Shown: positions 458 to 13,766 of the stretch, in pieces
Layout of the letters: the number at the start of each line of letters is the position of its first letter
Position numbering within the stretch: the first letter of the stretch is position 1
Origin: Patescibacteria group bacterium
GTDB taxonomy: Bacteria > Patescibacteriota > Microgenomatia > UBA10105 > UBA927
NCBI GenBank assembly: GCA_035510735.1
Contig: DATKGN010000006.1
Coordinates: 1,429-65,428 of the forward strand
DNA: 64,000 bases
Direction: 5' to 3'
Translations under genes and position numbers: made by a program
Notes under the pieces: model-generated
Databases searched by the model: none
What the model was told of the DNA's origin: nothing
Seen by the model: the letters and a program-made list of their open reading frames with translations, nothing else

Positions 458-708
458 GCTTCCAATACTTGGAATTCTTCATGGCGGGGTGAGTTGGGCA
501 AGGGCAAGCGAAGCGAAGTTTATTGGAGGCGAAGCCGGAAACCCTTGCCAAACGAGGGGCAAGACCCCTATTGTGTGTTAATCCAATGGTATTTAGATGA
601 CAGGTTTCTTCTTCTGATACCGACAGAGTGAAGAAGTTTTAGCCATAACGTACTATAATAGTTAACAGCGCTCGGTACCAAAATAAATTCCGAGATATCG
701 AAATAATC

Positions 709-2949
709 ATGAAACTTACAGACAACGAAAAACGAGATGTAATTAAATATTTAGAGGCAGGAAAGCCACTTCCTGAAAAATATCGTTTTCTTCTTTTCGA
801 TGACGATCGTGAGGTTGAACTCGTATGGAACGGCAAAACAGACGAAGTAACAAATGTAGTATTGCCTTTTCAAACAATAGAACAGATTGACGAACCAAGG
901 AGCGACGCTAAATTTGGCATGCAGGAGACACTTTTTGATACTTCAGGCAGACAGATAACAGGATGGACTAATAAACTTATATGGGGCGATAACAAACTTA
1001 TTCTTTCCTCATTAAAGAATGGGCCTCTTAGGAAAGAAATTGAAGCGCAGGGTGGGTTAAAACTTATCTATATTGATCCTCCGTTTGATGTTGGCGCGGA
1101 CTTTTCTATGGATATTGAAATTGGTGGCGAAGAATTCATTAAAAAACCATCAGTGATCGAAGAAATTGCTTACCGCGACACTTGGGGCAAAGGTGCAGAC
1201 AGCTTTATTTCAATGATTTATGAGCGTCTTCGACTAATGTATGATTTGCTAGCAGAGAATGGAAGTATTTATATTCATTGTGACTGGAGAGTAAATTCAT
1301 ATATGCGTTTAGTTTTAGATGAAATTTTTAATTATTTTATTGCTGAAATTGCTTGGCAAAAATTAAGATCAGTCAAATCTCAAAGCTTACATTTTTCAAA
1401 TATTAAAGACAGTATATTTATATATTCAAAATCAGATAGGTATGTGTTTAACCCTCAATTTACACCAAAGGACGAAAAATTATTAGAGACTCATTACCGT
1501 CATATTGAAGCGGAGACGGGGCGTCGTTATAACCTTGCTGATTTTACACAAAATGGGAGCGGTCAACCTAGAAAGTTTGGAGAGAGAATTATTTCACCGC
1601 CACCAAATAAGCATTGGATTTGGAGTCAAGAAAAAATTGATGAGGGTATTAAAAATGGAATGATTATGTTTTCAAAAACTGGTACACCGTATGTAAAAAG
1701 GTATTTTGATACAGGTGAGGGCACCAGAGTTGGAGATATTTGGGATGACATTTTTCCAGTTAATCAAGTCGCCGCAGAAAGACTAGATTATCCAACTCAA
1801 AAGCCCGAACTACTTCTGGAAAGAATTATTAAAGCATCTTCTAATGAAGGTGATCTTGTTGCAGATTTTTTCTGTGGATCTGGAACTACACTAGCAGTAG
1901 CAGAGCGATTAGGTAGGAAATGGATTGGTGCTGATTTGGGAAAGTTTGGAATTCATACTTCAAGGAAAAGATTAATTGGTGTTCAACGGGAGCTTAAAAA
2001 AGAAGGAAAAGATTTCCGGGCGTTTGAAATATTAAATGTCGGAAGATATGAAAGGGAGAACTTTTTAGCGGTTAATGATGATTTGCGCACAGAAGAAAGA
2101 GAAAAACAAGCTGAACGAAAAGAAAAAGAATTCGTCAAACTAATACTTTCTGCATACAAAGCAGAACCTGTTGAAGGCTTTATAAATATTTCAGGTAAAA
2201 AACGAGATCGTTTGGTTGCAGTTGGCCCGATAAGTACTCCCGTCTCCTCAAAACTTATTCGGGATATTGTGAGTGAATGTAAAGATAAAAAACTCACGAA
2301 AGTTGATGTACTTGGTTTTGATTATGAGATGGGGATGGACCTACAGGAATATAAAGATCAGGGAATTGATATTGTTTTCCGAATAATACCAAGAGAAGTG
2401 TTTGATAAAAAGGCGGTTGAAAAAGATCAAGTCAAGTTTTACGACGTAGCCTACATAGTAGCAAAACCAATAATAAAAGGGAAAGCGAATAGTAAAGAAT
2501 TATCGATTGAATTAACTGACTTTTCAGTATTTTACAATCAGGACGCAACAGAAGAAACAACAGAAGCACTTCGTCCTGGTGGTGAAAAAGTTATTGTTGA
2601 AAATGGACAGGTAGTAAAAATATCAAAAGATAAAGCCTCAGAAATCGTGTCAAAGGAAATTTTGACTAAAAAGTGGAGTGATTGGATTGATTATTGGGCA
2701 GTGGATTATAATTTCGCAAGTAGAAAAGAAATTGTTGCCGAAATTGATAAAGATGGTAACACTATTGAACGCTGGACTGGCGATTACATTTTTGATAATG
2801 AATGGCAGAGCTTTAGAACCAAGAAAAACAGGAACCTTGAGTTAGTTTCAGCGCCAAAAGAAGTTACCAAAGGCACTTATAAGGTGGCTGTAAAGGTTGT
2901 AGACATATTTGGCAATGACACAACAAGAGTTATGGAGGTGACTGTTTAA
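709..2949 (+). CDS. mod: Type III restriction-modification Mod subunit, N6-adenine DNA methyltransferase (beta class)
   Basis: Motif IV DPPF (IYIDPPFD) precedes motif I FxGxG (ADFFCGSGTT), the beta-class order typical of Type III Mod; res gene follows 1 nt downstream. Confidence 0.85.
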   Translation: MKLTDNEKRDVIKYLEAGKPLPEKYRFLLFDDDREVELVWNGKTDEVTNVVLPFQTIEQIDEPRSDAKFGMQETLFDTSGRQITGWTNKLIWGDNKLILSSLKNGPLRKEIEAQGGLKLIYIDPPFDVGADFSMDIEIGGEEFIKKPSVIEEIAYRDTWGKGADSFISMIYERLRLMYDLLAENGSIYIHCDWRVNSYMRLVLDEIFNYFIAEIAWQKLRSVKSQSLHFSNIKDSIFIYSKSDRYVFNPQFTPKDEKLLETHYRHIEAETGRRYNLADFTQNGSGQPRKFGERIISPPPNKHWIWSQEKIDEGIKNGMIMFSKTGTPYVKRYFDTGEGTRVGDIWDDIFPVNQVAAERLDYPTQKPELLLERIIKASSNEGDLVADFFCGSGTTLAVAERLGRKWIGADLGKFGIHTSRKRLIGVQRELKKEGKDFRAFEILNVGRYERENFLAVNDDLRTEEREKQAERKEKEFVKLILSAYKAEPVEGFINISGKKRDRLVAVGPISTPVSSKLIRDIVSECKDKKLTKVDVLGFDYEMGMDLQEYKDQGIDIVFRIIPREVFDKKAVEKDQVKFYDVAYIVAKPIIKGKANSKELSIELTDFSVFYNQDATEETTEALRPGGEKVIVENGQVVKISKDKASEIVSKEILTKKWSDWIDYWAVDYNFASRKEIVAEIDKDGNTIERWTGDYIFDNEWQSFRTKKNRNLELVSAPKEVTKGTYKVAVKVVDIFGNDTTRVMEVTV

Positions 2950-2950
2950 T

Positions 2951-5659
2951 ATGGCACTACACAAGGATTTTCCTCAAGACCCATATGTAATACTCGACCC
3001 GAGTATTAGATGGTTTCCGGCAGAGGAAGATTTGCGTGAAAAGGGAGGGCTAGAAAAATTACTTCCCCCATTGGTCGCTGATTTGCGTATTAAGGTAAAA
3101 GGCTGGAGAGATAAACATTATGAGGGAGCAAACGATACTTCTAGAGCTCTACTTAATTGGTGGTTTAAAGAAGAACATATTATTTACGACCAACATGGAA
3201 CCGCTTCGAAATTCCAATACTATTTTGCCCAACGGGAAGCGTTGGAAACAGTTATATGGCTTTATGAAGTTGCCAAAGTAAAAGATAAATATGATCTTAT
3301 TCGCTATAACTCCACAGGCGTGTTAAGTGCCGGAATGTTTACCGAAGACTGGTTGCGTTTTGTAATTAAAATGGCAACCGGCGCTGGGAAGACAAAAGTC
3401 ATGAGTTTACTTATCGCTTGGGCATATTTTCATAAAAAGTATGAACAGGACTCTCGCCTGGCAAAAAACTTTCTTTTAATTACACCCAACGTCATCGTGT
3501 TTGAAAGAATTAAAAATGATTTCGAGGGATTAAAAATCTTTTTTTCTGATCCGGTTTTACCTGAAAACGGATATCAAGGACAAAATTGGCAAGATGATTT
3601 CCAAGTGACATTACATCTGCAGGACGAGATAAAAACTATTTCTGATACAGGGAATATATTTTTGACCAACATCCACAGAGTATTCGAAGGAAATATCAAA
3701 GATGCTAGTTTGGATGATGAGGATACCTCTTCATATTTTTTGGGTCATAAACCGGTCACAAAAACAAACGATTCAACAGTCGATTTGGGAATGATTGTCC
3801 GTGATATTGATGAACTAATTGTTATCAATGATGAAGCCCACCATATTCATGATGAGAACATGGCTTGGTATAAATCGATATTAGATATCGACAACAGGCT
3901 AAAACAAAAAGGTTCGGGACTTGCTTTGCAACTGGATATGACAGCAACGCCAAAGAAGAATGATGGCTCGATATTTGTGCAAACGATAACGGACTATCCC
4001 CTTGTTGAGGCCATTCATCAAAGAATTGTCAAAAATCCTGTTATTCCTGACGCCGCCAGTCAAGGGAAACTAAAAGAGAATCAAAGCGCACTGTTTAGTG
4101 AAAAATATCGTGATTACATTAATCTCGGAATCGAGGAATGGCGTAAAACCTATGAGACCCTGAAACCTATGGGTAAGAAGTCAATTCTTTTTATCATGAC
4201 TGATGATACTAAAAACTGTGATGAGGTTGCTGAGTACATAAAGACAAGTTTTTTTGACTTGAAAGATGCAGTTCTGACCATTCATACCAATAAAAGCGGT
4301 GAGATATCTGAAAGTGTTACCGGTAAAAATATCGATGAATTAAATTTACTCAGAAAACAGGCCAATGAAATCGATAGTTGGGAAAGTCCTTTCAAAGTGA
4401 TTGTTTCCGTCATGATGCTGAAAGAAGGCTGGGATGTAAAGAATGTCACTACAATTGTCGGTCTTCGACCTTACGCTGCCGATTCCAAAATTCTTCCGGA
4501 ACAAACACTAGGACGTGGTCTCAGAAGGATGTTTTTTGGACAAAGCGATGTCGAAGAATATGTCAGCGTAATTGGTACACCAATGTTCATGGAGTTTGTG
4601 GAGTCGATTAATAGAGAGGGTGTTATTTTGGAAAGAAGAGAAATGGGAGAAGGATCTAAGGCGATTGCCCCAACAGTCATTGAAGTTGATAAAGAAAATC
4701 CTAATAAAAACATTGAAAAATTGGATATCGAGATTCCGGTTATGACCCCAAGAATACAAAGAGAATATAAAAATCTCGCGAGTTTAGATGTTTCCTTGTT
4801 TGGTAACCCTAAAGTTAAAGTTAAAACTTTTACTGAGGAAGAAAAACGGGAAATTGTATTTAAAGACGTAGTTGATGAAAAAACACACCACACGACTGTT
4901 CTGACTGGTGACGTGGAACCTGATTACAGAAGTGTCGTTGGTTTCTTTGCTCAAGCAATAATGCGTGAATTACGTCTGTTTGGTTGTTACGATATTTTAT
5001 TTGGAAATGTTAAAGATTTTATTCAGAATTATTTGTTTGAGACTCCGGTTGATTTGGAAGATCTAAATGTTCTGAGAAATTTATCAGAAGTTGAGTACAT
5101 AAAGCTCATTAAAGATTCTTTTAAAAAGGCAATAAACAACCTAACTGTTCAAGATAGTGGCGATACAGAAATCAAGAACTACATTAAAGTTAGTGAATCA
5201 CGACCGTTTGTTGTTAATGATAAGGCATACTTATTACCCAAGAAATCCGTTTTCAATAAAATTGTTGGTGATAGTAATTTTGAACTAACTTTTGCTGATT
5301 TCATTGAGAATTGTGACGATGTAATTTCCTTCTCAAAAAACTTTCAAAATAAGGAAGCTAGTGCTTTGAGAATCGAATATAAAAACTCGGAAGGTTTTAT
5401 TGCCACTTATTATCCGGACTTTTTTGTGAAAAAGGACGATAAGACTGTTTATATAGTCGAAACAAAAGGTCGCGAGGAAGAGGACGATAAATTGAAATTC
5501 GAAAGATTGCAAAAGTGGTGTGGGGATGTAAACAACCGGCAAACCAGAGTGGAATATAAAGCTTTATACATTAAGCAGGAAGAATGGGAAAAATACAAAC
5601 CAAAAAGTTTTGATGAGACAGTGAGGTTATTTAGTAGATCAATTGATAATAATGCATGA
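2951..5659 (+). CDS. res: Type III restriction enzyme Res subunit (SF2 helicase + C-terminal PD-(D/E)xK endonuclease)
   Basis: Walker A MATGAGKTKV, DEAH box VINDEAHH, helicase motif VI-like QTLGRGLRR, C-terminal YPDFFVK..IVETKG nuclease motif; adjacent to mod. Confidence 0.85.
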   Translation: MALHKDFPQDPYVILDPSIRWFPAEEDLREKGGLEKLLPPLVADLRIKVKGWRDKHYEGANDTSRALLNWWFKEEHIIYDQHGTASKFQYYFAQREALETVIWLYEVAKVKDKYDLIRYNSTGVLSAGMFTEDWLRFVIKMATGAGKTKVMSLLIAWAYFHKKYEQDSRLAKNFLLITPNVIVFERIKNDFEGLKIFFSDPVLPENGYQGQNWQDDFQVTLHLQDEIKTISDTGNIFLTNIHRVFEGNIKDASLDDEDTSSYFLGHKPVTKTNDSTVDLGMIVRDIDELIVINDEAHHIHDENMAWYKSILDIDNRLKQKGSGLALQLDMTATPKKNDGSIFVQTITDYPLVEAIHQRIVKNPVIPDAASQGKLKENQSALFSEKYRDYINLGIEEWRKTYETLKPMGKKSILFIMTDDTKNCDEVAEYIKTSFFDLKDAVLTIHTNKSGEISESVTGKNIDELNLLRKQANEIDSWESPFKVIVSVMMLKEGWDVKNVTTIVGLRPYAADSKILPEQTLGRGLRRMFFGQSDVEEYVSVIGTPMFMEFVESINREGVILERREMGEGSKAIAPTVIEVDKENPNKNIEKLDIEIPVMTPRIQREYKNLASLDVSLFGNPKVKVKTFTEEEKREIVFKDVVDEKTHHTTVLTGDVEPDYRSVVGFFAQAIMRELRLFGCYDILFGNVKDFIQNYLFETPVDLEDLNVLRNLSEVEYIKLIKDSFKKAINNLTVQDSGDTEIKNYIKVSESRPFVVNDKAYLLPKKSVFNKIVGDSNFELTFADFIENCDDVISFSKNFQNKEASALRIEYKNSEGFIATYYPDFFVKKDDKTVYIVETKGREEEDDKLKFERLQKWCGDVNNRQTRVEYKALYIKQEEWEKYKPKSFDETVRLFSRSIDNNA

Positions 5660-5729
5660 AATTTACTCGGAAAGCTTAAGAGATCCTTTGAGAGGTTTTT
5701 AAATATTTCAAGTGAATGACTGAATTAAA

Positions 5730-6740
5730 ATGATTAAAAAAATAGACAACAAAGAACTGAGAGAAATAATTCAAAGTGGCCACCTAAACGTGCTTGTTGG
5801 TTCTGGGTGTTCTTTAAATTACCTATCAACTTTAAAGGGTATAGAAGATAAGATGAACGTCGAAGCAACCAAAGAATCCGCTCAAAAAGATTATTACAAG
5901 TTGATAAAAAAATCTAAAGCAATCTTATATGAATCACTTGAAACGAATGCTGCTGAAAAGATAAAATTAAGCGACACAAAGGAAAATTATGATTCATTTC
6001 TTACGTTCTGGGCAGACACTGTATCCAAAAGATCTCTTCATATAGTCAATAAACAGGTAAACTTTTTTACAACTAATTTTGACATGTTTATGGAAGATTC
6101 TTGCGAAAGATTAGGGGTTCCTTACAATGATGGGTTCACTGGGCAAATCAATCCGATTTTCAGCGTTGCAAATTTTAATAAAATACAGAAATATAAGAGT
6201 TTACAGTTTGATAACACTTCTGACATACCTCTATTTAATCTAATAAAGCTACATGGATCTGTCTCATGGGTTGCAAAAGGTGAGAAAATTACCTACTCAG
6301 ACAGTTCTCATATCCCAGATAATTTGGCTACCAAATCAGGATCTGATTTTAGTAAACAATACAGAAAAATTGCAGTGATTAATCCTAATGCAGAAAAACA
6401 TTTTGAAACAGTTCTTGATACAAACTATGCTTCAATGTTAAGAAAGTTTACTCTAGAACTTGAGAAGGAAAACAGTGTTTTGGTCGTTGTTGGTTTTTCT
6501 TTAGAGGATAAACATATCAAAGATCTTCTCTATGGTGTCATGAAATCAAATCCTACTTTGATAGTAGTCTATTTTTCTTACTCTCAGTATGACGAGACGC
6601 TCGACAAACTAGAAGAAAAAAAGAATTCAAATTTATATATAATTTCACCTGAAAATAATTTTTCTTTTGAAAAAAGTGTTAAATACCTCTCTGAAGTTTT
6701 TGCACCCCAAAGAGACGATATACAACATGATGAAGAATAG
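5730..6740 (+). CDS. SIR2-like (SIR2_2 family) defence protein, partner of HerA
   Basis: NVLVGSGCS, TTNFD (cf. conserved TTNYD) and KLHGSVSW motifs of the SIR2_2 family; 3' end overlaps the HerA-like gene. Confidence 0.75.
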   Translation: MIKKIDNKELREIIQSGHLNVLVGSGCSLNYLSTLKGIEDKMNVEATKESAQKDYYKLIKKSKAILYESLETNAAEKIKLSDTKENYDSFLTFWADTVSKRSLHIVNKQVNFFTTNFDMFMEDSCERLGVPYNDGFTGQINPIFSVANFNKIQKYKSLQFDNTSDIPLFNLIKLHGSVSWVAKGEKITYSDSSHIPDNLATKSGSDFSKQYRKIAVINPNAEKHFETVLDTNYASMLRKFTLELEKENSVLVVVGFSLEDKHIKDLLYGVMKSNPTLIVVYFSYSQYDETLDKLEEKKNSNLYIISPENNFSFEKSVKYLSEVFAPQRDDIQHDEE

Positions 6741-8637
6741 CTTCAATCTACAAGATACCCTAGTCAGCAACTCAATATTTGTTATTGGGAGTGTCTTCAG
6801 TGTTAAGGGAAAAGATATTGTAATCAAGGTTAACAAAGATAAAAACCTTCCTCACCTGTTTTTTAAGGGTAAAACAATTAAGAATGTGTCTGTTGGGCTA
6901 TCTAATTATGTAAAAATAACCAAGGGCTTTACTGAGATTATATGCAAGGTTGAAGGTGAATTTTTAGAGGAAGATAAATTTCAAGCAAGTAAAAAATACA
7001 TAAACGAAAAACAAAAAATAGAACGATTCCTCAATGTATCGGTTTTTGGTTTTTATGATAGTGATAATCGATTCCAACATGGCATTAAGGAAATGCCATT
7101 AATCGGTAGTGAGTGTAAATTGCTCACAAGAGATGAATTTGAAATTTTACATCAATTATCTAATGGAACTGAGTTATCAATAAATCTAGGATCACTAATC
7201 GATGAGGAAACCCAAAGCATTAACCTCTCTATAAAGAAATTATTTGCTGGACATATTGGCATATTTGGTAATACCGGATCTGGAAAATCGAATACCTTAG
7301 CAAGGATGTATACAGAGTTATTTAAGTTGCCAAATTTAAATGATAACTTTAATAAAAAATCTAAGTTTATTTTTATAGATTTTAATGGAGAATATTCTAA
7401 AGATAGTGATGATCAAATTTTAACAGCAAATAAAGTTGTCTATAAATTACGAACAAAGGATAATAATGGCTCCAAATACCCAATTTCCAAAGCAGAAATT
7501 GAAAAAATGGAACTTTTATCCATATTGCTTAATGCTACTGAAAAAACACAACAACCATTCTTACATAGAGCTATAGACAGAGACTGGTATGACAACGACA
7601 ACGATGACCATCACAAGGAAGTTCAAAGTATAAACCAAAAGTTAAAAGACATCCTTTTGATGAAAAATAAAGAGTTTAATGTTCCTTTTTTGAAGAAATA
7701 CGTAAAAGACTTTGAACAACTAGGTTTTAAAGTCGTTAATGATAACAAAAATATTGACGATTTGAAATATCATGGTAATGATAATTGTACTTTCTATACT
7801 GGTCAAGGAACTACTGCTGTTTACGCAGATACAAACGAAGGTCATTTTATAGGGGTTGATGGATATTTTAACGTATCTATCTCTACAACTGAAGGTTTGA
7901 GTGACTTGCAAAAAATACAATTCAAAATAATAGACCAATATTACTTTGAGATTTTAAATGGATATGCAAATGATGAACACATCAATCCCCTTATGGGTAG
8001 ATTGAAAAAGCGATTTGACATGTTATCTAAGGTAGTTGAAATTAAGGACTCTTCTCAAACCAACGGAGAAAATGTTGATGTAACACCTTGTAATATAGAG
8101 GTAATTGATCTTAAAAATGTCAATTTTGAACTTAAAAAAGTTGTTCCATTACTTATTTGTAAAACAAACTACGATGAACAAAAAAATAGAAGGGATACCG
8201 ATAAAGAGAATTCTCTTCATATCATAATTGATGAGGCACATAGCATTTTGTCGGAAAACTCAAACAGAGAGGCTGAATCCTGGAAGGATTATAGACTCGA
8301 AACATTCGAGGAAATTATAAAAGAAGGTAGAAAGTTTGGAGTTTTCCTTACAATTGCAAGCCAACGACCGTCTGACATATCGCCAACTATTATTTCGCAG
8401 TTACATAATTATTTTATTCACAAATTAATGAATGAAAATGATTTGAAATCGATTAATAGAGCTGTTAGTTATTTAGATAAACTTTCCTTCGATTCAATAT
8501 CAAATCTTTCTACGGGATGCTGTTTCATCGCAGGACAAATGACACAATTTCCATTGTCAGTAAAAGTAAAACTGCTTGATAAAAATATTCGACCACAAAG
8601 TGAAACAATCGACTTAGATAAATTATGGAAACAATAA
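6727..8637 (+). CDS. HerA/FtsK-like ATPase of SIR2-HerA system
   Basis: Walker A GNTGSGKSNT, Walker B IIIDEAHS, C-terminal ASQRPSD region typical of HerA (DUF87). ORF track starts at TTG 6667; ATG at 6727 gives a 14-nt overlap with the SIR2 gene. Confidence 0.75.
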   Translation: MMKNSFNLQDTLVSNSIFVIGSVFSVKGKDIVIKVNKDKNLPHLFFKGKTIKNVSVGLSNYVKITKGFTEIICKVEGEFLEEDKFQASKKYINEKQKIERFLNVSVFGFYDSDNRFQHGIKEMPLIGSECKLLTRDEFEILHQLSNGTELSINLGSLIDEETQSINLSIKKLFAGHIGIFGNTGSGKSNTLARMYTELFKLPNLNDNFNKKSKFIFIDFNGEYSKDSDDQILTANKVVYKLRTKDNNGSKYPISKAEIEKMELLSILLNATEKTQQPFLHRAIDRDWYDNDNDDHHKEVQSINQKLKDILLMKNKEFNVPFLKKYVKDFEQLGFKVVNDNKNIDDLKYHGNDNCTFYTGQGTTAVYADTNEGHFIGVDGYFNVSISTTEGLSDLQKIQFKIIDQYYFEILNGYANDEHINPLMGRLKKRFDMLSKVVEIKDSSQTNGENVDVTPCNIEVIDLKNVNFELKKVVPLLICKTNYDEQKNRRDTDKENSLHIIIDEAHSILSENSNREAESWKDYRLETFEEIIKEGRKFGVFLTIASQRPSDISPTIISQLHNYFIHKLMNENDLKSINRAVSYLDKLSFDSISNLSTGCCFIAGQMTQFPLSVKVKLLDKNIRPQSETIDLDKLWKQ

Positions 8638-8673
8638 TTTAAATAAAGAGTCCATCTTAAAAGATTTCTTTGA

Positions 8674-9453
8674 GTGTATAAAAGTAATTTAAATAATATG
8701 TCCAAATACTACAATCCCAACCGAACACGTAATTTATATAACTCCGATTCTTTGGAGACTTTCCGTATCAGCCGGAGTAAAATTGACCTTTTTATCAATT
8801 GTCCTCGTTGTTTTTATCTTGATCGTAGGTTAGGAGTCGCTCAACCACCTGGATATCCATTTTCTCTCAATACTGCTGTCGATAAGCTTCTCAAGAAGGA
8901 ATTTGACAGGCATAGAGCCAATGGGACAGCCCATCCCCTAATGAAAGTTTATGGAATTGATGCCGTGCCTTTGTCACACGAAAAAATAAATGAATGGCGG
9001 GATTCACTTAGAGCAGGGATAACTTTTAAGATTGATAGCGAAAATGTAGTCATAACCGGCGGGGTTGATGATGTCTGGGTCAAACCCGATGGTGAATTTA
9101 TCATTGTTGATTACAAAGCTACTTCCAAAGAAGAAGAAGTGACGTTAGATGCTGACTGGCAAATCGGCTATAAACGCCAAATGGAGATATACCAGTGGTT
9201 ATTCCGAAAGAATGGCTTTCGCGTCTCCACAACTGGTTATTTTGTGTATTGTAATGGCAATACTGACAAAGAAGCTTTTGACGGTAAACTGGAATTTGAT
9301 ATTAAGATTATTCCATATGTTGGTGATTATTCCTGGGTCGAGAAGACCGTCCATGAGGCTATTGAATGTTTAAAAAGTGATACTCTTCCGGAATCCGGAG
9401 ACGATTGTGATTACTGTAAATATCGAAAAGCCGTTAGCCGTTTTGAAAAATAG
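8674..9453 (+). CDS. Cas4-like PD-(D/E)xK nuclease with Cys cluster (DUF83-like), stand-alone
   Basis: N-terminal CPRCFYL, VDDVW..IVDYKAT nuclease core, YKRQMEIYQWL and C-terminal CDYCKY, the Cas4/AddB-like Fe-S nuclease pattern. GTG start at 8674; alternative ATG at 8698. No cas1/cas2 or CRISPR array nearby. Confidence 0.6.
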   Translation: MYKSNLNNMSKYYNPNRTRNLYNSDSLETFRISRSKIDLFINCPRCFYLDRRLGVAQPPGYPFSLNTAVDKLLKKEFDRHRANGTAHPLMKVYGIDAVPLSHEKINEWRDSLRAGITFKIDSENVVITGGVDDVWVKPDGEFIIVDYKATSKEEEVTLDADWQIGYKRQMEIYQWLFRKNGFRVSTTGYFVYCNGNTDKEAFDGKLEFDIKIIPYVGDYSWVEKTVHEAIECLKSDTLPESGDDCDYCKYRKAVSRFEK

Positions 9454-9456
9454 ATC

Positions 9457-9816
9457 ATGGACAAAGAACATCATGATAGTTTTGGAGATTTCTTAGGAGC
9501 ACTTTTCCAATTATTTTTACTAGGTGCGATTATATATTTTCTGTTTTTAGTCATTTGGGGAATTTTCAAGTTAGTTTTGTGGTTACTCAAACGTATTTGG
9601 CAATTAATAACGTGGGTATGGTTTCAGATTAGAAAACACGCCGTCTTACAATACAGAATAAATAGGCTAAACTTGGCCACTCATGCTTTTCTTTTGAGAC
9701 ACGGCAAGATTAATCGAATTATGTTATGTATCCGTACCTATTTCTTAATCTTTTGGACAAGTCGACCATCCGAGTTATTTAATAAACTGAGCAAATCAAT
9801 AGATACGAACGTTTAA
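9457..9816 (+). CDS. small Trp-rich membrane protein, hypothetical
   Basis: ATG 3 nt after preceding stop; strongly hydrophobic N-terminal segment (LGALFQLFLLGAIIYFLFLVIWGIFKLVLWLL). Confidence 0.45.
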   Translation: MDKEHHDSFGDFLGALFQLFLLGAIIYFLFLVIWGIFKLVLWLLKRIWQLITWVWFQIRKHAVLQYRINRLNLATHAFLLRHGKINRIMLCIRTYFLIFWTSRPSELFNKLSKSIDTNV

Positions 9817-9844
9817 AAAATATTGACCGTATTAATTAATATTT

Positions 9845-10357
9845 ATGGCAATAATTAGTAATAAATACTCACTGAAAAAAGCTTGTTTAAGAAATTCAAA
9901 AAACTTACTTAAGGAATCAACAAGATTACTTAACCGAAAAAAGTATGCGTGGGCTACCTTTCTAGCTATAACCTCCTTCGAAGAAAGTCAAAAGTTAGGT
10001 CTTTTACACATGCTTGAGGCTAATTACTTATCTGAATCTAAATTTAATAAATTTTGGCGAAGTCATGAGTATAAAATAAGGTCAAAAGATGCACGTATAA
10101 GATTTAATTTCGATACCAGCGAAAAAATAAAACCTACGTTAGTTTTAGGATCAAAACAAGAAGCTCATGAGGTTATGAATATGCGAGAAAGTTGTTTATA
10201 CGTCGATTTTGCCGAAAAGTCGATATCTGAGCCTCTCAAAATCAACATAGCGATTGCTATACAATATATCAATGAAGCAACCAGAGAGCTAGAGTCCGCT
10301 AACTTTTTAGAGTTGTTACAAAAAAGGTTACATAGAGTACTTAAAGTTAAAAAATAA
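9845..10357 (+). CDS. AbiV-like abortive-infection family protein (tentative)
   Basis: N-terminal helix pattern C..N...LL.E...LL......A.FLA..S.EE..K, as I recall for the AbiV family; size 170 aa fits. Confidence 0.4.
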   Translation: MAIISNKYSLKKACLRNSKNLLKESTRLLNRKKYAWATFLAITSFEESQKLGLLHMLEANYLSESKFNKFWRSHEYKIRSKDARIRFNFDTSEKIKPTLVLGSKQEAHEVMNMRESCLYVDFAEKSISEPLKINIAIAIQYINEATRELESANFLELLQKRLHRVLKVKK

Positions 10358-10361
10358 AACT

Positions 10362-11138
10362 ATGAATGACGATCAATTAAGTTTAACAAAGAAGAAATTT
10401 CCGATACTGTTTTCCTTTTCTCAAGATTACACAGGCAGTGATTACAATGACATCAGGCAATTATTTAGAGATAAGCCAGTCTTAATTTTTGGTGAAGACT
10501 ACTGGTCAAAATATGAGCAATCCCTTCAATCTTTAACTGAAAAAGACAAACAATATTTGTTCGGTAAACTTAAAACCTTAACTAAAAGAATTGATGAAAA
10601 GGCGGGTTGGCCTCATTTCGAAGAAAGACTAAATGAAGCATTGGCTTATAGATATCTTCAAAAAAATGGTTACAAAAAAATACGGTTTATTGACGAAAAC
10701 ACTAAGAATGGACGAAAACCAGATTTAGAAATCCTAAATGCGAATGACTCACTTAATGGACTAGTGGAGGTAAAAACCATTAGATTCTCCCTTGACGAAT
10801 ATGCAGCCGTCAAAAAGGAATTAGAAACAGGTAAAGGAAGATTTTTGCCAATGCAAGTGAACAAAAATCTTTATAAAAAAATTACCGATGATCTAGATAA
10901 AGCAGTAAAACAACTGACTTACCAGGGTTCCGCATCAATATCTTTACGGAGAATTTATCTTTTTCTTAATTTAGACGCCGGAGTCTTAATGGATCTCATA
11001 TTTACCCCAGATAGCGATTTACAAAACTTTATTTGTCAAACTAAAAAAACTTTGGATAAGAATAATCATATTGACTTAAAAACGTATTTACTTGGTGGTA
11101 TTCCCGGAGAGCCAAAAGAGCTCAAATGCAAAGGCTAA
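10362..11138 (+). CDS. hypothetical protein with PD-(D/E)xK-like motif
   Basis: GRKPDLEIL...GLVEVKTI resembles a PD..(D/E)xK restriction-endonuclease-fold core; starts 4 nt after the AbiV-like gene. Confidence 0.4.
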   Translation: MNDDQLSLTKKKFPILFSFSQDYTGSDYNDIRQLFRDKPVLIFGEDYWSKYEQSLQSLTEKDKQYLFGKLKTLTKRIDEKAGWPHFEERLNEALAYRYLQKNGYKKIRFIDENTKNGRKPDLEILNANDSLNGLVEVKTIRFSLDEYAAVKKELETGKGRFLPMQVNKNLYKKITDDLDKAVKQLTYQGSASISLRRIYLFLNLDAGVLMDLIFTPDSDLQNFICQTKKTLDKNNHIDLKTYLLGGIPGEPKELKCKG

Positions 11139-11165: not shown

Positions 11166-11390
11166 ATGCTTAACCCACAGGATGAAAAGACTAGGCAGGA
11201 CATTGCGTCGAAATTGAAAAAGTACCGTCTCAAAAAAGGCTTGTTTCAAACCGATGTAGCTAAGAAAGCTGGTTTGAACAGCAATTTTTACTCGAAAGTT
11301 GAACGCGGTGATGCTATTCCATCTGTGATTACACTTAAAAAGATTTTGGGGGCGCTTGGGGTTAAATCTTCAGAAATTCTCTCGTTTTAA
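11166..11390 (+). CDS. XRE-family helix-turn-helix transcriptional regulator
   Basis: Classic HTH_3 pattern LKKYRLKKGLFQTDVAKKAGLNSNFYSKVERGDAIPSVITLKKI. Confidence 0.75.
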   Translation: MLNPQDEKTRQDIASKLKKYRLKKGLFQTDVAKKAGLNSNFYSKVERGDAIPSVITLKKILGALGVKSSEILSF

Positions 11391-11608
11391 TTCTTCTTCA
11401 TTTCTATCTCGTGCAGAAGTTCTTTGTATTCCTTTTCAAGTTCTTCCGGTTCAAAATGAGCCATGGTGTGATAATGGGCTTTGAGATGCTCCAGTAAAGC
11501 CATCGCCATTTCCGGTGTAGCATGTTCGGGGTCAGTGGCTTTCAAAAATTTGAGAACACCGTCGATATCTTTTTCGTTTAACTGATACCCACCTGTCTTT
11601 GTCGTCAT
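11387..11608 (-). CDS. small hypothetical protein downstream of serine recombinase
   Basis: 73-aa ORF, helical/acidic composition, co-oriented 8 nt downstream of the recombinase. Confidence 0.35.
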   Translation of the reverse strand: MTTKTGGYQLNEKDIDGVLKFLKATDPEHATPEMAMALLEHLKAHYHTMAHFEPEELEKEYKELLHEIEMKKN

Positions 11609-11616
11609 GCGAGTTA

Positions 11617-13086
11617 TTATACCTCAAATAAGGGATTAATTTTTGGATAGCTCAATCCGGGATAATTCCAAACGAAACCGCGTGGAAATATGGTACTTAA
11701 AATTGCTTTTTGATTATCAACGGATATATGCATATATGTGTTGTATATATTCTCTAGATTGGAATTCATATATGTAATACAGGTTGAAAGCGTATATTCC
11801 TGTAGAAAAGATTTTTTAATCGATAACTTTATTCGGTCAATATTATCGCTCAATAGCGCGTTTTGCTCGCAAAATACCTCGTCTGTATAGAGACCGGATA
11901 AATGTTTATGGACGAGGTTCGTTCGCATAGCGATAAGTTTGCCTACGAGTTGTTCTCTTTTTGCCTTATACATCCTGATTTTCGAGTACCGTCTTTCATA
12001 TTCCTCCTGTAGGAGTTTATAAATAATCACACGACCAAGCTTGGACAGCTTCATTCTCGTTAATAGTGACTTTAATAACTTATGGAGCTTTTCGGCCGGT
12101 ACATACGGCGAATGACACAATTGCGATTTGTAACACCAATAATATGGATACTTCTTCAAGTGACCACTACACCATGAGCCGGTAAATCCGAGTCCGCATT
12201 TTCCGCACTTTACTATTCGACGTAATGGAAAATCAACATTCGGTGGATTTCGAAGCACCAAGGATGGTTTATTATGTCGACCGTCGAGTATTGCCTGAAC
12301 TTTCTCAAACAGCTCTTTTGAAACCATAGGCTCATGTTGCCCGTGGACCTCTTCGTTGTATCGCTTGGAAACAAGAAAACCGGCATAAAATTTTGAGCGA
12401 AATATCCGGTGTACCGTTTGACGCCGGATAAGATACTTTTGGTTGTTAATAGTGGTTCGTAATCCCCAAGAATTCATGATGTTCGTCATCTCACGAAGTG
12501 ACTTTGTACCCGTGGCCATCAATTCCCAGGCTTTTTTCACCTGATCCCAGACTTTGGTATCTTTAAAGACATATCCTTCATGGCGGATATATCCTAATTG
12601 TGCCTTTCCGGAACAAAGCAATCCTGATTGAAACCGTGCGTGCATACCGTTTCTTGCACGCTCACTTTTCATCTCATTATCAAGTTGTGCAATTCCTGCA
12701 TAAAAATTACCAATGAATTTGCCCATAGGAGTATCATCAACCGGCTCTGTTGCTGAAATAAGTTTAATTCCCATTCTATTCAGTTTCTCCTTTATGATGA
12801 GGTAGTCTGTCATCTGCCGAGACAAACGATCGGTTTTGTAAAATACAACAGCCTGAACATCTTTTGTATGCCGTCGGCAATATTCGAGAAGTTTGATCAG
12901 TTCAATTCTACCTGTGATAGTTTTTGCGGATTTTCCTTCTTCACGATATACCTGCGTAACGACATAACCTAACCGATCAGTTTCGCGCCTGCACACTTCT
13001 TCCTGTGTGCCCATAGAATAGTTATCGACCTGTTCCTCTGTTGATACCCGAAGATAAAGAATTGCTTGTTTTTGTGTTAGTTTCAT
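11617..13086 (-). CDS. large serine recombinase (resolvase/integrase family)
   Basis: N-terminal resolvase domain with catalytic Ser (YLRVSTEEQ), DRLSR motif, recombinase domain and C-terminal zinc ribbon (CGKCG...WCSGH...YWCYKSQLC). Confidence 0.85.
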   Translation of the reverse strand: MKLTQKQAILYLRVSTEEQVDNYSMGTQEEVCRRETDRLGYVVTQVYREEGKSAKTITGRIELIKLLEYCRRHTKDVQAVVFYKTDRLSRQMTDYLIIKEKLNRMGIKLISATEPVDDTPMGKFIGNFYAGIAQLDNEMKSERARNGMHARFQSGLLCSGKAQLGYIRHEGYVFKDTKVWDQVKKAWELMATGTKSLREMTNIMNSWGLRTTINNQKYLIRRQTVHRIFRSKFYAGFLVSKRYNEEVHGQHEPMVSKELFEKVQAILDGRHNKPSLVLRNPPNVDFPLRRIVKCGKCGLGFTGSWCSGHLKKYPYYWCYKSQLCHSPYVPAEKLHKLLKSLLTRMKLSKLGRVIIYKLLQEEYERRYSKIRMYKAKREQLVGKLIAMRTNLVHKHLSGLYTDEVFCEQNALLSDNIDRIKLSIKKSFLQEYTLSTCITYMNSNLENIYNTYMHISVDNQKAILSTIFPRGFVWNYPGLSYPKINPLFEV

Positions 13087-13265
13087 ACGTCTATATTAGT
13101 AAGTAGTTCATCAAGTGTTTTTCCTTCAAATATTTGCTGTTCTACAGTATTGAGCCAAACATCAACCAAATATTGTAGTTCGGAAATAGTTGTTTGAATT
13201 TCGTCGTCATTCATCTGAATGCCGTCTTTCTGTAACAGTTCGCGGATTTCGTCTAATTTATCCAT
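13083..13265 (-). CDS. small acidic hypothetical protein (possible recombination directionality/accessory factor)
   Basis: 60-aa ORF overlapping the recombinase start by 4 nt, 3 nt downstream of the PLD gene. Confidence 0.35.
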   Translation of the reverse strand: MDKLDEIRELLQKDGIQMNDDEIQTTISELQYLVDVWLNTVEQQIFEGKTLDELLTNIDV

Positions 13266-13268
13266 AGT

Positions 13269-13766
13269 TCAATAAATAAATCTACTTAATTTTAGATACT
13301 CAAACATTTCTTGTGACATACTGCTACTTTGGATTCTGCGCATTATTTCACGGCTGCACGTTTGGGAGAGAATGTTGAGGCTACCTTCCCAGAGTACTTT
13401 CCGATCAATGATAGCCAGTTTCCGGTGGGAGTATTCGTTGCTGATTAATACTTGGATTCCCATTGTTTCAAATTGCCTGATCTCACATTCAGCCTGTCGT
13501 TTGAGATTAGGATCGTGGTCGTCCGGATCACGGGTAATAACGTAAACTTTGACTTTCCTTCGAACCAGCTCCGCAAAGACCGCTGTCAGATGAAATACGC
13601 GTTGGGAGGTAATGAATGGGCTTTCGATGATAACTTCCGTTCTGGAGCGTTTAAGATCGGCTATAAACCGTTTGTAGAACGTGGTCTCGTCGAACAGTTG
13701 AGATTGGACAAGGTCGGGTGACAGATGGAACAGTTTTTTAACACCAGACAGGACAAGGTTATTCAT
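13269..13766 (-). CDS. phospholipase D-family (single HKD) nuclease, Nuc-like
   Basis: Exact HxKx4Dx6GSxN motif (HRKLAIIDRKVLWEGSLN); 165 aa like dimeric Nuc/BfiI-type endonucleases; RBS AAGGAGG 4 nt upstream of ATG. Confidence 0.7.
   Translation of the reverse strand: MNNLVLSGVKKLFHLSPDLVQSQLFDETTFYKRFIADLKRSRTEVIIESPFITSQRVFHLTAVFAELVRRKVKVYVITRDPDDHDPNLKRQAECEIRQFETMGIQVLISNEYSHRKLAIIDRKVLWEGSLNILSQTCSREIMRRIQSSSMSQEMFEYLKLSRFIY

Follow-up and report, generated by a model that had tools for sequence, protein, structure and literature searches.

A SIR2-HerA pair, a Cas4-like nuclease gene and a small membrane protein gene as probably independent units of a co-directional defence array in a Patescibacteria genome

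The stretch of DNA analysed here, called the window throughout, comprises 64,000 nucleotides (nt) of a Patescibacteria group bacterium (contig DATKGN010000006.1, positions 1,429 to 65,428) and carries, between its positions 5730 and 9816, four closely spaced genes in the same orientation, which encode a SIR2 protein, a HerA ATPase, a Cas4-like nuclease and a small membrane protein. The initial annotation of this segment proposed that the two-gene SIR2-HerA anti-phage system continues here into a possible four-gene functional module. The four open reading frames (ORFs) and their family assignments were all confirmed by Pfam and PADLOC profile matches and by sequence motifs; the grouping of the genes is re-evaluated below by comparing orthologous loci sampled from the HerA, the nuclease and the membrane protein side.

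The SIR2 protein, a predicted NADase, matched PF13289 (E = 5e-13) and the PADLOC SIR2 model (E = 4e-49), contains all three motifs GSG, TTNFD and KLHGS, and matches the SIR2 chains of the solved SIR2-HerA complexes 8w9l/8wld, 8j4u and 8yhx. Similarly, the HerA protein (636 amino acids) matched PF01935 (E = 1e-17) and, over its full length, the PADLOC HerA model PDLC04097 (E = 2e-172), has intact Walker A (GNTGSGKS) and Walker B (IIIDEAH) motifs, and matches the HerA chains of 8yho, 8wiv and 8j4u. Database entries identical to HerA, and to the nuclease described below, carry the label Patescibacteria group bacterium. The coordinates initially assigned to the two genes, their 14-nt overlap and their attribution to the two-gene SIR2-HerA type were found to be correct. 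The scores obtained against the NCBIfam equivalog models remained far under the cut-offs (82.8 versus 500 bits for NF042942, SIR2_antiphage; 136 versus 800 bits for NF042943, HerA_antiphage), and the pair is therefore regarded as a divergent SIR2-HerA subtype and not as a Nezha equivalog. Judging from its sequence, 5730-8637 is a standard, intact two-gene SIR2-HerA anti-phage system of this divergent subtype.

Published SIR2-HerA systems are two-gene systems (PMC11472057, PMC11514289, PMC13434337), and in the homologues described a HerA hexamer, acting as ATPase and nickase, assembles with a SIR2 dodecamer, phage cues releasing the NADase and leading to NAD+ depletion. The window pair shares with the known systems (Nezha, E. 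coli types I-III, and Paenibacillus) a SIR2_2 gene upstream of and overlapping herA, with intact motifs, and differs from these types as a divergent subtype located in Patescibacteria and metagenome-assembled genome (MAG) arrays behind restriction-modification (R-M) modules. Specifically, its close relatives are found in Patescibacteria and in environmental MAGs of several other phyla, where the pair directly follows R-M modules in densely packed co-directional arrays. Within this clade (L006-L032, L113, L125 and L126) a restriction module lies almost always co-directionally upstream, with gaps often of -4 to 22 nt; an EcoRI-like methyltransferase and GmrSD pair is found directly 5' of SIR2 in six loci, and is thus commoner there than the nuclease is after HerA, while other loci of the clade have type I, type III or AlwI-type modules in this position. 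The plasmid HerA homologues of cultured bacteria (144 records, 38-40% identity) were isolated two-gene operons in all four cases inspected.

The HerA side was sampled through a one-genome-per-species scan, which provided 27 loci with HerA proteins of 56-82% identity, distributed over Patescibacteria and at least eight other lineages; three more SIR2-HerA contexts were added through exact-protein look-ups. SIR2 lies directly upstream of HerA in every orthologous locus having upstream sequence. In addition, a blastn comparison of the window with all loci delimited a SIR2-HerA block of DNA homology which, in 27 orthologous loci, starts at 5704-5752, ends at 8628-8641, a few bases from the HerA stop codon, and never extends past 8641. 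This block covers exactly two genes, and it is therefore the pair that constitutes the unit of inheritance across the 27 loci. The spacer that follows (8638-8697) has no homology to any SIR2-HerA locus, and only its last ~20 nt match nuclease loci. No terminator-like hairpin was detected between HerA and the nuclease gene (spacer fold z = -0.47), and co-transcription of the two, as initially proposed, is probable. An imperfect 25-nt direct repeat (80% identical; 8630-8654 and 8680-8704) lies with one copy at the HerA stop and the other at the nuclease start, and may have arisen by chance, given the AT-rich region. Apart from this repeat, neither attC-like nor other repeats were found at the cassette junctions, most spacers being too short for such sites.

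The nuclease gene begins at the ATG at 8698 and encodes 251 amino acids, GTG 8674 being merely the first possible start. This assignment follows from the fact that all homologues begin at this position (MS[KQ]YYNP...), and it sets the spacer after HerA at 60 nt, so that the 36 nt initially reported had to be corrected, while the identification of a Cas4-like PD-(D/E)xK nuclease with a cysteine cluster directly after HerA stood. The protein matched PF12705 (E = 4e-15) and the PADLOC Cas4 models (E = 6e-11). PF01930, the Cas4 profile initially indicated for this gene, gave no match at E <= 0.01, PF12705 being the only one of the two to match, and the score obtained with TIGR00372 (40.8 bits) lies under the 65-bit cut-off of the cas4 family. 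In an alignment of 50 family members (34-93% identity), C35, C237 and C240 are invariant and C38 is nearly so, and the conserved motifs are D124/D125, D138-x-K140 and Q161xxxY165.

Compared with the Fe-S nuclease domains of Cas4 (CRISPR adaptation), Dna2, AddB and AdnA, the window nuclease falls under the cas4 threshold and is accompanied by neither cas1, cas2 nor a CRISPR array; it is ~50 amino acids longer than a typical Cas4, and its cysteines are arranged 2+2 (CxxC...CxxC), unlike those of Cas4. In Cas4 the cysteines are arranged 1+3, as known from the SSO0001 literature. The initial view that the gene has no CRISPR context is upheld, as no CRISPR-type tandem array and no Rfam family were found in the window and no cas family among the island proteins.

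The nuclease has thousands of relatives, the top 120 clusters among them being at least 80% identical; grouped at 50% identity, the family comprises 312 clusters (E <= 1e-30). The ratio of non-synonymous to synonymous substitutions (dN/dS) is ~0.07, 90% of pairs show saturated synonymous sites, and even the closest allele has a dS of ~0.9. The similarity among alleles therefore reflects long-term constraint and not recent spread, and recent transfer was discarded as an explanation of the high identity. Two further origins were considered and rejected. A phage or plasmid gene is at odds with the lack of matches in 50,697 phage records, with a single plasmid hit and with just two IMG/VR contigs; a core housekeeping gene is at odds with the lack of conserved synteny in the 83 nuclease loci described below, in which accessory or defence genes make up most of the neighbours.

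How far the nuclease travels with SIR2-HerA can be read from the gene after HerA. In the 26 other informative loci this gene is heterogeneous (DUF192, DpnI-like, HAD hydrolase, response regulator, SNF2 helicase or trypsin-like), and it belongs to the nuclease family in two of them, L019 and L125; a six-frame nuclease profile search of the SIR2-HerA loci returned the window and L019 only, L125 being added later. Twenty-four of the 27 SIR2-HerA loci are without the nuclease. Among these is L113, the closest HerA relative (91% amino acid identity), where a DUF2779 gene on the opposite strand is followed by NERD, helix-turn-helix (HTH), small ORF and PLD genes, with no 251-residue nuclease. The same holds for the two other positive loci: HerA of L125 is closer to those of L007, L006 and L022 (89-91%), and HerA of L019 to those of L030, L021 and L020 (81-82%), all lacking the nuclease. 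Moreover, the nuclease alleles of the window, L019 and L125 are only 52-63% identical to one another, and the genes after the nuclease in L019 and L125 differ from those of the window. The recurrence of a Cas4-like gene downstream of HerA orthologues, envisaged in the initial annotation, thus nearly fails: with 2/26 loci, scattered in the HerA tree and both with closer HerA relatives that lack the gene, no co-inheritance of SIR2, HerA and nuclease emerges.

The reciprocal sample, collected from the nuclease side, consists of 83 non-redundant loci, 77 of which have at least 300 nt of upstream sequence. None of the 83 contains SIR2, HerA, the membrane protein gene, AbiV or the 258-residue protein encoded further downstream in the window, and an IMG/VR search gave no further SIR2-HerA or nuclease loci. 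In the blastn comparison the nuclease homology block spans 8678/8681-9452, and among the nuclease loci the limits of DNA similarity coincide exactly with the ATG and stop codon of the gene. On both sides the flanking genes are for the most part unique in the data set, oriented like the nuclease and separated from it by 0-25 nt. When 112 immediate neighbours were scanned by family, mixed defence families appeared: AAA_21/AAA_15 ATPases (GajA, AriA and OLD type), DRT-type reverse transcriptases and trypsin-like proteases, as well as Shedu, GmrSD, Schlafen helicase, Fic, RhuM, Ppl and R-M subunits. In some loci the upstream gene is a housekeeping gene (transketolase, ROK, cyclophilin). The window allele is closest (93%) to alleles in loci without SIR2-HerA; a 93% identical homologue follows a type I R-M system with a reverse transcriptase, and an 83% identical one follows a UvrD helicase. 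Trypsin-like and FtsK-like genes recur downstream of the nuclease.

A number of observations weigh against a nuclease gene that is fully independent of its neighbours. In three SIR2-HerA loci that are phylogenetically separate (the window, L019 and L125) HerA is followed by the nuclease, always immediately and at gaps of 13-60 nt. DUF2779, a second Cas4-like family, is found directly beside HerA in L011, L031 and L113, and one gene further on in L006. Among the relatives of the nuclease there are fusions to TIR, NUDIX, HD or DUF2779 domains. The upstream neighbours of the nuclease are skewed to ATPases and helicases. Finally, the nuclease sample is drawn mainly from the clade of 72-93% identity, the clades of 50-65%, which include the L019 and L125 alleles, being represented by three loci.

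With regard to these features, the DUF2779 genes near HerA (L011 9931-11382, L031 507-1991, L113 6364-7770, L006 5836-7194) encode proteins of ~470-490 amino acids and lie on either strand, and one of the HerA-adjacent proteins shows a weak Cas4-like N-terminal match. DUF2779 was rejected as a branch of the nuclease family, the hhalign probability of 0.2 indicating different families, although one protein, P0314, fuses both. The partners seen in the nuclease-domain fusions are DUF2779, GYF plus TIR, HD_4 and NUDIX (representatives P0314, P0284, P0283 and P0266), and the TIR, NUDIX and HD fusions hint at a link with NAD- or nucleotide-based immunity. Exclusively upstream of the nuclease are all six AAA_21/SMC-type genes, all three AAA_15 genes, both Schlafen-helicase genes and UvrD (L033-L112, L114, L122, L123).

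These observations are compatible with a three-gene variant, in which the nuclease would be a facultative accessory of SIR2-HerA, either degrading phage DNA or processing the nicks made by HerA into DNA ends, which would stimulate ATP consumption and license the NADase. Adjacency to HerA in 3/27 loci, always in the slot immediately downstream, the DUF2779 genes near HerA in three to four further loci, and the P0314, TIR and NUDIX fusions all fit this arrangement, and there are precedents for it: DNA ends gate the NADase of the type III Sir2-HerA system (PMC13434337), the Cas4-family nuclease ACE1 boosts Argonaute (PMC12094033), and in DUF4297-HerA the partner of HerA is a nuclease (PMC12198126). 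Nevertheless, we consider a three-gene variant unlikely, given the 24/27 SIR2-HerA loci without the nuclease, among them the one with the closest HerA relative, the absence of SIR2-HerA from all 83 nuclease-sampled loci, the scatter of the positive loci in the HerA tree, the divergence of their nuclease alleles, the 93% identity of the window allele to alleles from loci lacking SIR2-HerA, and the occurrence of the DUF2779 genes on either strand. In addition, an obviously separate R-M pair adjoins SIR2 more often than the nuclease adjoins HerA.

A related and quite improbable variant of the argument takes the nuclease as a helper cassette that is promiscuous among the defence arrays of Patescibacteria, that is, a DNA-end or single-stranded DNA processing enzyme which would boost any ATPase-, nickase- or restriction-based system located upstream of it, and which in the window could turn HerA nicks into DNA ends licensing NAD+ depletion. 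An interchangeable partner of this kind would explain the ATPase/helicase skew upstream, the three independent HerA-nuclease junctions and the TIR, NUDIX, HD and DUF2779 fusions.

The fourth gene of the segment, 3 nt after the nuclease stop, was correctly described as encoding a small Trp-rich membrane protein, of 119 amino acids with six Trp residues and a conserved N-terminal transmembrane (TM) helix. Only four related clusters were found in a collection of 5.8 billion proteins. In the contexts recovered for three non-identical clusters, the TM gene lies at most 1.3 kb upstream of an HTH gene (~74 amino acids), an opposite-strand small ORF and a PLDc_2 gene, and is preceded by DUF5677, by an unknown gene or by a type I R-M system; in none of these contexts is it beside the nuclease, SIR2 or HerA. 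Its homology block starts at 9441-9446 and, in L120/L121, at 9446, corresponding to the TM gene start. These two loci share the HTH, small ORF and PLDc_2 genes that follow in the window at 88-96% amino acid identity, and with respect to them the window has AbiV and the 258-residue gene inserted after the TM gene and, between the small ORF and PLD, an additional serine recombinase (11617-13086) and 60-residue ORF. This right-hand frame, with the HTH gene on the + strand and both the small ORF and the PLDc_2 gene on the - strand, ends different defence arrays, in the window (11166-13766) as well as in L113, L114, L119, L120/L121 and L001. L114 does not differ from L115 as far as PLD, beyond which the two diverge, and this point may be the edge of a mobile element. 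By its genomic contexts, the TM gene is assigned to the right-hand frame of the hotspot, and not to SIR2-HerA or the nuclease.

Altogether, these data leave the four-gene system, with NADase, ATPase, nuclease and membrane effector acting jointly, with a probability close to nil. Tight spacing and shared orientation speak for it, at this one locus; the TM homologues are found by the HTH/PLD frame and never by the nuclease, SIR2 or HerA, DNA homology to the TM loci begins at the TM start, L019 and L125 carry different genes after the nuclease, and the full combination is absent from the 26 other SIR2-HerA, the 83 nuclease and the four TM loci (0/26, 0/83 and 0/4). The presence of the TM gene in orthologous SIR2-HerA loci, on which the initial proposal depended, fails outright. 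No paper linking SIR2-HerA with Cas4 was found, in accordance with the initial remark that the combination is not known as a described system.

The features of the locus are reported in Table 1. The four genes are part of a low-GC island extending from ~700 to ~13,800 (GC 0.30-0.38, compared to ~0.46 elsewhere in the window), outside which the window contains chromosomal housekeeping genes (DnaE, carbamoyl-phosphate synthase, CTP synthase, ArgG, ATP synthase). Within the island, eight co-directional genes on the + strand, from Mod to the 258-residue protein gene, occupy 709-11138 with intergenic gaps of -14 to 70 nt, and are followed 3' by the HTH gene and then, on the - strand, by the 73-residue ORF, the large serine recombinase, the 60-residue ORF and PLDc_2. 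The spacing on which a functional module had been postulated is therefore the same for all eight genes, including the type III R-M and AbiV genes.

Table 1. Features of the defence array and its right-hand frame, in window coordinates
Feature	Position	Strand	Basis
Promoter-like element and 5' leader	644-708	+	TATAAT 655-660; ends at ATG of first array gene
Type III R-M methyltransferase (Mod)	709-2949	+	PF01555 E 6e-43; PADLOC MTase_III E 2e-108
Type III R-M restriction subunit (Res)	2951-5659	+	PF04851 E 1e-17; PADLOC REase_III E 6e-19
SIR2 (predicted NADase) of SIR2-HerA pair	5730-6740	+	PF13289; PADLOC SIR2
HerA ATPase of SIR2-HerA pair	6727-8637	+	PADLOC HerA; PF01935
AT-rich junction, 60 nt, between SIR2-HerA block and nuclease	8638-8697	.	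Homology comparison; no hairpin
Stand-alone, predicted RecB/Cas4/Dna2-fold PD-(D/E)xK nuclease, CxxC...CxxC cluster	8698-9453	+	PF12705
Small membrane protein, 119 amino acids	9457-9816	+	4 homologous clusters, by HTH/PLD frame
AbiV (HEPN) abortive-infection gene	9845-10357	+	PF18728 E 2e-20, 74.1 bits (cut-off 27.1); TIGR04498 63.6 bits (cut-off 27)
258-residue protein with PD...EVK motif	10362-11138	+	Motif KPDLEI...LVEVKT read from sequence
HTH (Xre-type) regulator, right-hand frame	11166-11390	+	NCBIfam and PHROG HTH matches; 94% amino acid identity to L120/L121
73-residue frame ORF	11387-11608	-	96% amino acid identity to L120/L121
Large serine recombinase	11617-13086	-	PF00239, PF07508, PF13408
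PLDc_2 (Nuc-like) protein, right end of frame	13269-13766	-	PF13091 E 2e-13; amino acid identity 88% to L120/L121, 46-50% to L113/L114/L001

The AbiV gene passes both HEPN_AbiV family thresholds and contains, in its 5' part, a 22-nt tandem repeat (9876-9933; 2.7 copies, 78% matches). The 258-residue protein, whose gene begins 4 nt after AbiV, gave no family match in profile scans and no homologue in any fetched locus. Its PD...EVK motif is typical of PD-(D/E)xK nucleases; the protein is a possible nuclease of this type and may be a partner of AbiV.

At the left end of the array, the 644-708 element is 89.6% identical to positions 1066-1130 of L114 and ends at the ATG of the first gene in both loci, the first genes being different (type III Mod in the window, type I HsdR in L114). 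This arrangement suggests that one promoter drives an exchangeable array. A promoter scan was uninformative (46 promoter-like sites, with 44.9 expected by chance), and a terminator scan found no terminator in the array. The L113 and L114 arrays begin right after genes for a VirB4/TraG-like ATPase and an M23 peptidase (L113 1-964; L114 1-1052), and in L125 a full TrbC-PrgI-TraC-VirB4-M23 operon comes after the nuclease (L125 8805-13888). At the equivalent left edge of the window a DUF2958 gene (80-457, - strand) stands in place of these type IV secretion system (T4SS) genes. On the basis of these comparisons, the locus appears to exemplify a type of hypervariable defence array that is led by a promoter and associated with T4SS genes; the literature yielded no account of this Patescibacteria hotspot.

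The T4SS association raises the question of whether the nuclease is a defence gene at all, or a maintenance or DNA-processing gene of a conjugative element that carries defence cargo. The position of the L125 nuclease directly upstream of the T4SS operon, the start of the L113 and L114 arrays right after VirB4-M23, the strong purifying selection on the nuclease (dN/dS ~0.07, dS saturated) and the location of its sole plasmid match in a long co-directional array would all be expected from such a gene. We judge this explanation very unlikely, as just a handful of the 83 nuclease loci were found to have T4SS genes at a distance of up to 8-10 kb, a housekeeping gene lies upstream in some loci, and the TIR, NUDIX and HD fusions point to immunity.

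In conclusion, the data indicate that 5730-9816 is probably a mosaic of three independent units belonging to a longer co-directional defence array, and not a four-gene system. The identities of the genes, the boundaries of the mosaic and the independent assortment of its parts are observed directly in the locus comparisons. The first unit would be a canonical SIR2-HerA abortive-infection pair in which, by analogy with its homologues, a HerA hexamer and a SIR2 dodecamer would respond to a phage cue with NADase activity and NAD+ depletion. The second would be a single-gene RecB/Cas4/Dna2-type nuclease with a four-cysteine metal cluster, found very commonly in the defence islands of Patescibacteria next to dozens of unrelated systems; we infer that it acts without a dedicated partner, on single-stranded DNA or on the free ends of DNA. 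The third would be a small membrane protein travelling with the HTH/small ORF/PLD nuclease frame. The genes are probably co-transcribed from the conserved promoter at ~655, in one unit with the preceding type III R-M genes and the following AbiV gene, and a shared promoter would explain their tight spacing without joint function.

Several known systems resemble parts of this mosaic. DUF4297-HerA and the archaeal HerA-NurA systems also encode a HerA ATPase beside a nuclease, but their nuclease is obligate, conserved and of another family, whereas that of the window is absent from most orthologous HerA loci. ACE1, an Argonaute-associated Cas4-family nuclease, is consistently co-encoded with prokaryotic Argonaute (pAgo) and forms a heterodimer (PMC12094033), while the window nuclease has no consistent partner. 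With the defence islands and hotspots of integrative or conjugative elements the locus shares low GC, conserved frame genes, hypervariable defence cargo, a serine recombinase and, in related loci, a T4SS; it differs from them in the unusually tight one-direction packing behind a conserved promoter and leader, with exchange exactly at start and stop codons.

These results call for caution in the interpretation of defence islands, where close packing of genes should not be taken to indicate a multi-gene system: the eight genes of this array belong to at least four separate systems and yet have the same orientation, follow one another almost without gaps and are probably served by a single promoter. 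Patescibacteria have been described as a group with very few identified defence systems (PMC12366544), and the locus adds an example of SIR2-HerA from this group. In addition, it provides two leads, namely an abundant, strongly conserved and uncharacterised nuclease of predicted Cas4 fold resident in Patescibacteria defence islands, and a T4SS-flanked hotspot in which cassettes appear to be swapped exactly at gene boundaries behind a conserved promoter.

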